Shown in pieces: positions 17,501-18,848 of a stretch of 64,000 nucleotides of DNA (position 1 is the stretch's first letter; every line of letters starts with the position of its first letter). Location of the stretch: contig JAWMAR010000026.1 in NCBI GenBank assembly GCA_036785375.1, forward strand, positions 12,028,001 through 12,092,000, written 5' to 3'. The notes under the pieces are model-generated. The model ran no database searches, had not been told where the DNA came from, and saw nothing but the letters and a program-made list of their open reading frames with translations. Made by a program: the position numbers and the translations under genes. This DNA comes from Leucoraja ocellata (Eukaryota).

Positions 17501-18848
17501 CACCTAGTGATGCTGAAACCCATCAAGTTTAAGTTCAGTGGATATATTCTACTTAAAACCCATACAAGTCTTATAGTTTTAGATTTATAAACCATATATT
17601 TTGTATGTGTTTGGAATTACTCCATTGCGCTCACTGGCAAATACGCAAGCAACGATAATGGCACTTGTGCAGTCATGTGAATTATTTTCTTCCTGATCCA
17701 TGCAGGTTGAGGCGAACAACATCCTGACTTATTCTGCTGTAGATATGAGCAATTCCAAAAGGAAAGGGAGACAGAAAAGCGAAGAGGAGACATCCTATGC
17801 ACAAGTAAGATTCTGCAGCACATGAAGAAAACATAGAAAGCGACGCAGAAAATAGGTGCAAAAGAGCCATATCCTAATGTCATAAATCATGAGACATAGG
17901 GGCAGGTACTGGCCATTCAGCCCATCGAGTCTGCTCCGTCATTGGATCATGGTTGATCTATTTTTCCCACTCAACCTAATTTTGCTGCCATATCCCTGTA
18001 ATTTTTGACAACCTTACTAATCAAGAACATGTCAATCTTTGCTTGAAAAATATCCAACAAATTGTCCGCCACATCCGTCAGTGAATCTTCTATCCAAGAG
18101 TCAAGCGTCAAGAATGTTTTATAGTCATATGTCCCATCCACGCTAGTACCTTGCCTCTAACTCCATGGACTCCTATCTTGTTTAGGAACTGCATGTGCGT
18201 CCTGAAAATCCAAGTAAACATGGTCCATGGTCTCTCCTTTGTCCATCTCCCCTTAAAACTATGCTGACTTCGGCCTGTTTCACAATATTTTAAGTACCCC
18301 GAAACCTCATCATTCATAATGTACACTAATATCAGACCAACCACTGAATATCTGGGATTGTTGGCACAAGCGACTGCAGATGATGGAATCCAGTGCAAAA
18401 AAAAAAACAACGACGCATCACCAGGCCAGCCTGCATCCGTGGAATGAAAAAATCAAGCGACATTTTAATCCGAAGAAGGGTCGCGATCCATCACATAGTT
18501 TGTTATTTTTCTTCCACATGTGTTGCCAGGCCTACAGTGTTCGCTCCAGTCTATTTACTCAATATCTGCGTTTGTCCCAACGTTGGTAGTGTGGTGCGTC
18601 TAAAGTTGTGCGGGTGTTTTTGATACCTGACTAGATCCGCGGGCCACAACCTGGTTCAACAATTACATCTTTTGCAACCGTTGGTTTTTCAGGTAAAACA
18701 ACGGACCGCCCGGGAAGTACTTACATACGCATCTGTGGAATTGTCTCAACCCGGGAATGCTGGTAAAGTTAAACCTAGGGATAAGGTCACGGAATATGCT
18801 GCGCTGCAGACGGCAAATCCACGAAGAGTAAAAGATGACGGAAAGTAA
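11473..18848 (+). CDS. Gene A (span): Ig-superfamily V(J)-C1-TM receptor with a four-tyrosine inhibitory tail, SIRP-alpha/NCR3-like, ~355 aa; exons 11473-11518, 11702-12022, 12532-12840, 14255-14359, 17186-17217, 17706-17804, 18693-18848
   Basis: All introns are GT..AG with consistent phases (1,1,1,1,0,0). The exons join into an open 1068-nt CDS with one domain per exon (signal, V, C1, TM, three cytoplasmic exons). Confidence 0.88.
11702..12022 (+). CDS. Gene A exon 2, V-set Ig domain with J-like G strand
   Basis: [37 protein letters not shown]-strand Cys, C-strand Trp, DxGxYxC and GxG motifs. Acceptor ttttccaacag, donor G|GTGAGT. Confidence 0.95.
12532..12840 (+). CDS. Gene A exon 3, C1-set Ig domain (not in the ORF track)
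   Basis: Translates as [54 protein letters not shown], with the FYP and YxCxVxH C1 signatures. Acceptor ctgtcccacag, donor G|GTATGA. Confidence 0.95.
12930..12983. repeat. (AAT)n microsatellite
   Basis: Directly visible. Confidence 0.9.
14255..14359 (+). CDS. Gene A exon 4, transmembrane segment
   Basis: [35 protein letters not shown]; polypyrimidine acceptor ..tcttccag, donor A|GTAAGT; phase 1/1. Confidence 0.9.
15190..15580 (+). mobile_element. CR1 3' fragment
   Basis: Similar to the 4130-4490 3' region. Confidence 0.8.
16015..17052 (+). mobile_element. CR1 RT/3' fragment
   Basis: [36 protein letters not shown]. Confidence 0.9.
17186..17217 (+). CDS. Gene A exon 5, short cytoplasmic exon ([11 protein letters not shown])
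   Basis: Acceptor cttttag, donor TCG|GTATGC. Its 32 nt convert phase 1 to the phase 0 needed by exon 6. Confidence 0.7.
17706..17804 (+). CDS. Gene A exon 6, cytoplasmic ITIM (LTYSAV) plus ITSM (TSYAQ|V)
   Basis: [33 protein letters not shown]; acceptor ..catgcag, donor CAA|GTAAGA. Confidence 0.85.
17878..18350 (-). mobile_element. Degenerate CR1 fragment in gene A intron 6
   Basis: Antisense CR1 3' UTR plus deleted RT pieces. Confidence 0.7.
18693..18848 (+). CDS. Gene A exon 7, terminal exon with ITIM (LTYASV) and ITSM-like TEYAAL
   Basis: [51 protein letters not shown]; acceptor gtttttcag. Confidence 0.85.
   Translation, partial: VKQRTAREVLTYASVELSQPGNAGKVKPRDKVTEYAALQTANPRRVKDDGK

Follow-up and report, generated by a model that had tools for sequence, protein, structure and literature searches.

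The window analysed here, a 64,000-nucleotide stretch of skate DNA, contains at 17706..18848 two exons that encode a cytoplasmic tail with four tyrosine motifs, and these raise two questions: what kind of receptor the tail belongs to, and how it arose. The first-pass annotation had proposed a strong inhibitory receptor, possibly a one-C1 relative of SIRP or a convergent checkpoint receptor, with a tail built by exon duplication. We find that these exons belong to a gene, here termed gene A, for a V-C1 surface receptor with two tyrosine-pair tail modules. Its predicted role, to which we assign a probability of about 0.8 on sequence evidence, is that of the inhibitory partner in a cartilaginous-fish paired-receptor system.

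Exon structure of gene A

Sequence analysis identified seven exons with GT-AG boundaries that splice into a single open frame of 355 amino acids on the plus strand, in the layout leader-VJ-C1-TM-tail, with one C1 exon between the V exon and the transmembrane (TM) exon. Exon 1 (11473..11518) encodes a leader peptide and ends in phase 1; the same leader is present in the Leucoraja model P0001. Exon 2 (11702..12022) encodes a germline-joined VJ-type Ig domain (Pfam V-set, E 6e-7) with a J-like G-x-G-x-x-L-T-V strand at its end, and exon 3 (12532..12840) a single C1-set domain (Pfam C1-set, E 3.6e-13). These are followed by an uncharged TM segment (exon 4, 14255..14359), a 32-nucleotide juxtamembrane exon that passes from phase 1 to phase 0 and has matching residues in models P0002-P0004 (exon 5, 17186..17217), and the two tail exons, exon 6 (17706..17804) and exon 7 (18693..18848), the latter ending in the stop codon. 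A candidate polyadenylation signal, ATTAAA, lies at 19068..19073 on the plus strand, with a second at 19188. Retroelement fragments are present in intron 4 (15886-16900, plus strand). AlphaFold returned a compact V fold for the V domain (pLDDT 88.8), and fold searches with this domain found vNAR, CD79b, NCAM, VH and SIRP-alpha about equally alike, with no separation among them.

The V-C1 splice of gene A is spanned by one RNA contig, with three differences, from run X1 (one of four runs). In the same run a little depth was seen across the TM bin, and exons 6 and 7 were uncovered; in the remaining three runs, which carry a related label, only repeats were covered. The V-C1 join is thus the only one seen in skate RNA, while database models of the ray orthologues are spliced from TM to tail as in the gene A model.

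Four tyrosine motifs in two tail exons

The four motifs are read in the plus-strand frame at 17724, 17790, 18720 and 18789, corresponding to Tyr280, Tyr302, Tyr316 and Tyr339, and the spliced 355-residue model reproduces the tyrosine spacings of 22, 14 and 23 residues originally reported. Exon 6 (module 1) carries an ITIM at Tyr280 and an ITSM-type motif at Tyr302, 22 residues apart; exon 7 (module 2) carries an ITIM at Tyr316 and a TEYxxL motif at Tyr339, 23 residues apart. All four tyrosines lie within [SIVLT]xYxx[IVL], a result that was obtained in none of 200,000 shuffles of the 102-residue tail. By published consensus (ITIM, [SIVL]xYxx[IVL]; ITSM, TxYxx[VI]; PMC12151841, in part), the tail reads ITIM, ITSM, ITIM, TxYxxL, motif 4 not being a strict ITSM because of its Leu at +3. 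A retrieved bat SIRP-alpha reads ITIM-ITSM-ITIM-ITIM, with spacings of 24/17/26. The label ITIM-ITSM-ITIM-ITSM, which the first-pass annotation had given to both tails, strictly fits neither of these two proteins.

Exon 6 ends in a Gln codon, so that the +3 Val of motif 2 is supplied by the first codon of exon 7. The exon 6 donor GTA also reads as Val in frame; an unspliced transcript would therefore keep motifs 1 and 2 and stop five residues further on. Retention of this intron, read in frame over 17805-17825, would yield a short two-motif tail.

The V exon of gene A, used as a query, retrieved the Leucoraja erinacea model P0001 (98%), which stops after C1. It also retrieved Hemitrygon, Mobula and Pristis models under the NCBI name PTPNS1-like, i.e. 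SIRP-alpha-like. Conservation of the tyrosines in orthologues had been singled out beforehand as a point on which the interpretation would turn: the three ray database models all retain the four tyrosines and their 22/14/23 spacing. Tail identity to the three rays is 59-66%, making the tail about as conserved as the V domain (61-77%).

An ancient tail module shared by a V-C1 family

Further relatives were retrieved from sharks and from the chimaera Callorhinchus. Models of this family are present in Hemitrygon, Mobula, Pristis, Heterodontus, Heptranchias, Scyliorhinus and Callorhinchus under the RefSeq automatic names PTPNS1-like, SIRP-beta-1-like and tapasin-related; they share with gene A the same domain order and the same 37-residue tail module, and the C1 domains of the family form one clade in two trees (100/98; 98/96). 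A V search of the skate's own genome matched 52 of 71 scored candidates, in clusters on contigs C26, C578 and C1270 and at a single locus on C105, although some of these may be haplotype copies. The cluster includes broken copies. In one neighbour the last tail exon (C26:12134686-12134900, minus strand) is frameshifted within its first motif, so that only module 1 is kept. A lone member outside the clusters, at C105:6079375-6093493, is near the conserved shark models P0058, P0182 and P0184 and has a divergent tail; the Amblyraja model P0009 contains a near-exact C1 repeat. A full-text literature search returned no description of the V-C1 family, though Dornburg and Yoder (2022) and Ohta (2019) may well treat these genes, and a term search of portions of the elephant-shark paper PMC3964593 and one supplement gave no mention of SIRP or ITIM. 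The family is thus modelled and named in databases but apparently little described in the literature.

As had been noted at the outset, phase 0 is the starting phase of both exon 6 and exon 7, and the two can be aligned with each other, with a local score of 51 compared with 19.4 ± 4.0 for shuffled sequences (0 of 10,000 shuffles). This score is driven by the motifs: p is 0.03 for the linkers by themselves, and at the DNA level the alignment (p = 0.10) is not significant, which argues that the duplication is not recent. A whole-genome search with exon 7 returned no match except exon 7 itself. Across the family, tails consist of the 37-residue unit in one to several copies, and skate neighbour genes have the same two-exon phase-0 tail as gene A, in which a phase-0 exon ending two residues past its second Tyr is followed by the last exon. 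In 19 two-module tails, first modules are 40% identical to one another and last modules 38%, compared with 30-32% between first and last. Compared with three chimaera proteins, module 2 of gene A shows 35-46% identity with the last modules and 16-27% with the first ones; for module 1 the separation is less clean. Relative to three ray orthologues, module 1 is 67-75% identical to the first module and module 2 is 49-62% identical to the last. Because first and last modules group by position, chimaera included, we infer that the exon duplication predates the chimaera-elasmobranch split and is common to the whole family. The proposed origin of the tail by exon duplication therefore holds to the extent that exons 6 and 7 both derive from a single phase-0 module, but the event is old and family-wide rather than peculiar to gene A.

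Motif 2 is the variable motif of the family, being complete (Tyr plus a hydrophobic residue at +3) in 6 of 19 first modules. In gene A and its ray orthologues it is completed by the Val of the next exon, whereas most paralogues have Thr or Asn at that position. Judged by its sequence, the gene A tail is a real, conserved, inhibitory-type tail that comes from an ancient duplicated exon.

A head-to-head twin with an arginine transmembrane exon

New here is a twin of gene A, read from the assembly, with a V domain 97% identical to that of gene A, an Arg-containing TM exon and no ITIM exon found. It lies head-to-head with gene A at C26:12023787-12018621 (minus strand), in a stretch that reaches to 12017754 and is situated 4-10 kb before the start of the window, with the two start codons 15.7 kb apart. 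The two proteins are identical at 104 of 107 V residues, thus differing at three, and at 96 of 103 C1 residues; at the nucleotide level they match at 45/46 positions in the leader, 316/321 in V and 298/309 in C1, with introns 93-96% identical. Directly after C1, identity drops to 66% and then to 50%. The TM exon of the twin is unrelated in sequence to that of gene A and encodes an Arg near the outer end; it is followed by an exon-5 homologue and a candidate last exon, and no ITIM exon was found in the downstream stretch examined. On either side of the leader-V-C1 block of the twin lie relics of older sequence, a leader/V and a decayed C1, suggesting that the block was copied into an older gene.

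Two further pairs of an Arg-TM and an uncharged-TM gene are found at C26:7.85/7.87 Mb and C26:7.89/7.95 Mb, with V domains identical at 104/106 and 98/107 residues, and in both the uncharged-TM member is ITIM-tailed. Among 84 family proteins that have a TM segment (one more was dropped because its TM was mis-called), at least two motifs were present in 0 of 15 proteins with a TM Arg compared with 36 of 69 without (Fisher p 9e-5, a value inflated by the relatedness of the rows and the possible truncation of models). The skate genome also has an FcR-gamma-type TM exon at C201:592449-592535, whose best PDB match is FcR-gamma (E 1e-10; TM exon alone examined). This contrasts with a 2014 report, in those portions that treat the question, that C2-type LRC receptors and FcR-gamma were not found in sharks (PMC4016189). 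A CD3-zeta-like TM exon at C175:2976731-2976793 is apparently frameshifted, by assembly error or as a broken copy.

The Arg-TM twin, with no ITIM exon found, the two additional pairs and the FcR-gamma-type exon together make gene A likely to be an inhibitory half, and the twin is predicted to be the matching activating receptor. The idea of a lone checkpoint receptor is accordingly dropped in favour of one half of a likely activating/inhibitory pair within a multigene cluster.

A gene A paralogue within the window, gene B (38258..53256, minus strand), has the layout leader-V-C1-uncharged TM (43632)-basic tail, and no tyrosine motif was found in this basic tail. Gene B-like models are present in rays and chimaera (P0056, P0177, P0120), so this appears to be a conserved third type. 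The last exons of OGFOD1 (57353..60240, minus strand; Pfam Ofd1_CTDD, E 1e-8 and 0.0045) provide a synteny marker. OGFOD1 continues beyond them on the same strand, and its 3' exons, over 57353-62340, lie within the receptor cluster. The C578 cluster is flanked by NUDT21 and BBS2. Other elements on the plus strand, named from their sequence, are a CR1/L2-like reverse-transcriptase frame of 742 amino acids (511-4398) and a second, broken non-LTR element (7547-9200); a long open frame of tandem repeats at 25294-25956, with units of about 21 residues, is probably satellite DNA.

Relationship to SIRP

The SIRP-alpha-like database names raise the possibility that gene A is the skate orthologue of SIRP-alpha, reading CD47 as a 'don't eat me' signal. 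Several comparisons are consistent with such an identity. The best PDB match of P0002 is human SIRP-alpha (E 1.8e-18; single-sequence search), the ESM atlas list is topped by SIRP-alpha clusters (0.97), and the Pristis orthologue aligns with bat SIRP-alpha collinearly through C1, TM and tail, with the four tyrosines in register (E 5e-10). The gene A tail also shares with SIRP-alpha the arrangement of four tyrosines in two pairs, and the family tail profile scores 33.9 bits on SIRP-alpha compared with 13.6 ± 4.2 for motif-fixed shuffles (1/1000), which were the controls of this comparison. The family tail pattern, however, also matches the unrelated PZR, and the remaining evidence makes orthology very unlikely. 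The gene A ectodomain has one C1 domain where SIRP has two, and its V domain matches that of SIRP-alpha over 35 residues only, the alignment opening a 4-residue gap at the FG loop. In the best tree of V domains, those of SIRP branch separately from the family (a joint clade, p-AU 0.195, is not rejected), and in the family-profile search IgA, UrIg2 and an antibody construct rank above SIRP-alpha. Activating members of the family have their Arg near the outer end of the TM segment. The chromosomal surroundings differ as well. In human, SNPH lies beside the SIRP locus at 20p13, and all four tyrosines of SIRPA are encoded by its last exon. NSFL1C is likewise placed at 20p13 (PMC6585022, in part). 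Gene A, by comparison, neighbours OGFOD1 and the C578 cluster neighbours NUDT21 and BBS2, with the SEP-domain (NSFL1C-type) and syntaphilin matches on other contigs of a fragmented assembly.

Coelacanth, lungfish, skink and bat yielded SIRP-like V-C1-C1 proteins. With the coelacanth SIRP query P0123, no SIRP-type V was found among the 122 of 575 skate candidates that were scored. Two Pfam models identified no CD47 in the skate genome in a search run without a positive control, the best match being a VSIG4-like V exon at C153:2805945-2806208. In trees built from a hand-picked subset of rows, with skate-exon outgroup names read from sequence, SIRP C1 comes out as the sister of the family C1, at 84/82 and 83/79 (unstarred; p-AU values of 0.18 and 0.34 leave the alternatives unrejected), so that the C1 trees lean weakly to SIRP sisterhood. 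The earlier suggestion of a one-C1 SIRP relative therefore survives in the SIRP-alpha-like look of the PDB, atlas and Pristis-bat comparisons and fails on domain number and neighbourhood; the best trees set the V domains apart and join the C1 domains weakly, with the alternatives rejected in neither case. Gene A is SIRP-alpha-like in its predicted working and is not classed as a SIRP.

A tentative reading, which we consider somewhat more apt to be wrong than right, is that the family is a cartilaginous-fish sister lineage of the SIRPs. An ancestral VJ-C1 gene with a two-pair SHP-docking tail would have been copied in an early vertebrate genome duplication, one copy giving rise to the SIRPs (coelacanth, lungfish and tetrapods; human 20p13) and the other to the expansion near OGFOD1, NUDT21 and BBS2 (human 16q). 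The twin would then represent a renewal of pairing, in which a fresh leader-V-C1 copy of the inhibitory gene was pasted into an older arginine-TM gene. The reading presumes paralogy between human 16q and 20, of which no statement was found in the portions of PMC8302630 consulted. If true, the sister-lineage reading would place the beginnings of the SIRP-type checkpoint in the ancestor of jawed vertebrates; where SIRPs came from in evolution is described as unknown (PMC9652883, in part).

Predicted signalling by the two tail modules

The only PDB match of the tail-module profile is a peptide of PZR (E 0.21, weak). In PZR, pY241 and pY263, 22 residues apart, bind the tandem SH2 domains of SHP-2 in a 1:1 complex, holding the SH2 domains open (PMC12415285, in part). 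This match and the 22-residue spacing suggest that each tail exon is one bidentate docking unit; SHP-1 and SHP-2 binding sites are conserved in sharks (PMC12151841, in part). Ala at pY+1 favours SHP-1, and Ser at this position in PD-1 failed to recruit SHP-1 (PMC8631942, in part). At pY+1 of motif 1, gene A has Ser and all three rays have Ala. By this rule either SHP-1 or SHP-2 would be a suitable partner for module 2, and mainly SHP-2 for module 1 of gene A. The view of gene A as a strong inhibitory receptor is thus upheld as to the type of tail (uncharged TM, at least two consensus ITIMs, tyrosines conserved in three of three rays) but its strength is conjectural, and the Ser that motif 1 has at pY+1 would make recruitment of SHP-1 weaker.

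In the mechanism we propose, a ligand bound by the V domain would cluster the receptor, and Src-family kinases would phosphorylate the tail. Each exon-encoded tyrosine pair, 22-23 residues apart, could then engage the two SH2 domains of a single SHP-2 or SHP-1 molecule and so damp activation, with module 2 as the conserved core and module 1 as an auxiliary with a predicted preference for SHP-2. The same ligand would be recognised by the twin, which would activate via FcR-gamma. In other paired receptors a self ligand can be mimicked by a pathogen, and by analogy a self ligand with a pathogen mimic is the most likely target of gene A.

TxYxx motifs can also recruit SAP/EAT-2 and flip a signal to activation, as in the SLAM family, and gene A could in principle be such a switch receptor. 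Motif 2 of gene A fits the strict ITSM, and motif 4 has Thr at -2 in four of four batoids. Across the same batoids, however, only two of four have a Thr at -2 in motif 2, and all four have Leu at +3 in motif 4, so that a strict ITSM is found at motif 2 in two of four and at motif 4 in none. Motifs 2 and 4 are, moreover, each paired with an ITIM at SHP-type spacing, and Thr at -2 has itself been linked to selectivity for the SHP-2 C-SH2 domain (PMC12151841, in part); we regard a switch function as very unlikely. Slightly less probable still is that the tail exons go unused in this species, leaving only a soluble or short V-C1 product or a decaying gene, as the truncated Leucoraja model, the uncovered exons 6-7 and the broken copies in the cluster might suggest, since all seven exons are open with canonical GT-AG boundaries and matching phases and the tail is about as conserved relative to rays as the ectodomain.

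If the paired-receptor interpretation is true, a large V-C1 family acting with an adaptor of the FcR-gamma type would take the role of polymorphic innate on/off receptors in cartilaginous fish, and would enlarge the set of non-rearranging VJ-C1 genes that figure in discussions of how antigen receptors arose. Gene A and its twin, with three V-residue differences, form a clean test system. The tail mechanism of gene A is in itself ordinary, and its orthologues are already called SIRP-alpha-like in databases.

Comparison with known receptor systems

LILR-type paired receptors with a TM Arg resemble this family in having near-identical ectodomains joined to either an ITIM tail or a TM Arg, which in the LILR type couples to FcR-gamma. 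The LILR type uses C2-type domains, however, and the likeness is one of analogy, not kinship; the LILR Arg is noted in PMC4016189 (in part). PRARP, UrIg/UrIg2 and NKp30 share with gene A a germline VJ exon and do not rearrange; UrIg is also V-C1, as is PRARP. In trees that included no PRARP sequence, UrIg-type C1 and skate NKp30-like V were outside the family or unresolved. Published locations are the MHC for NKp30, PRARP and UrIg and the antigen-receptor complex for UrIg2 (PMC10751288 and PMC12227049, in part).

The tails of PZR (MPZL1), PD-1 and BTLA are like that of gene A in having an ITIM followed by a second phosphotyrosine motif about 22 residues on, a geometry for which bidentate SHP-2 binding has been solved in PZR (PMC12415285, in part). 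These three receptors have one such pair and no C1 domain, whereas gene A has two exon-encoded pairs.

SIRP-alpha and SIRP-beta share with the gene A family a non-rearranging VJ domain with C1, four tail tyrosines in two in-register pairs, and a clustering of inhibitory and activating paralogues. Gene A differs from SIRP-alpha in having one C1 domain rather than two, a shorter FG loop, tyrosine spacings of 22/14/23 instead of 24/17/26, and different neighbours. SIRP-beta has a TM Lys, which is visible in sequence P0173. The activating relatives of gene A, in contrast, have an Arg near the outer end of the TM segment, while SIRP-beta signals via DAP12 (PMC12975943, in part).
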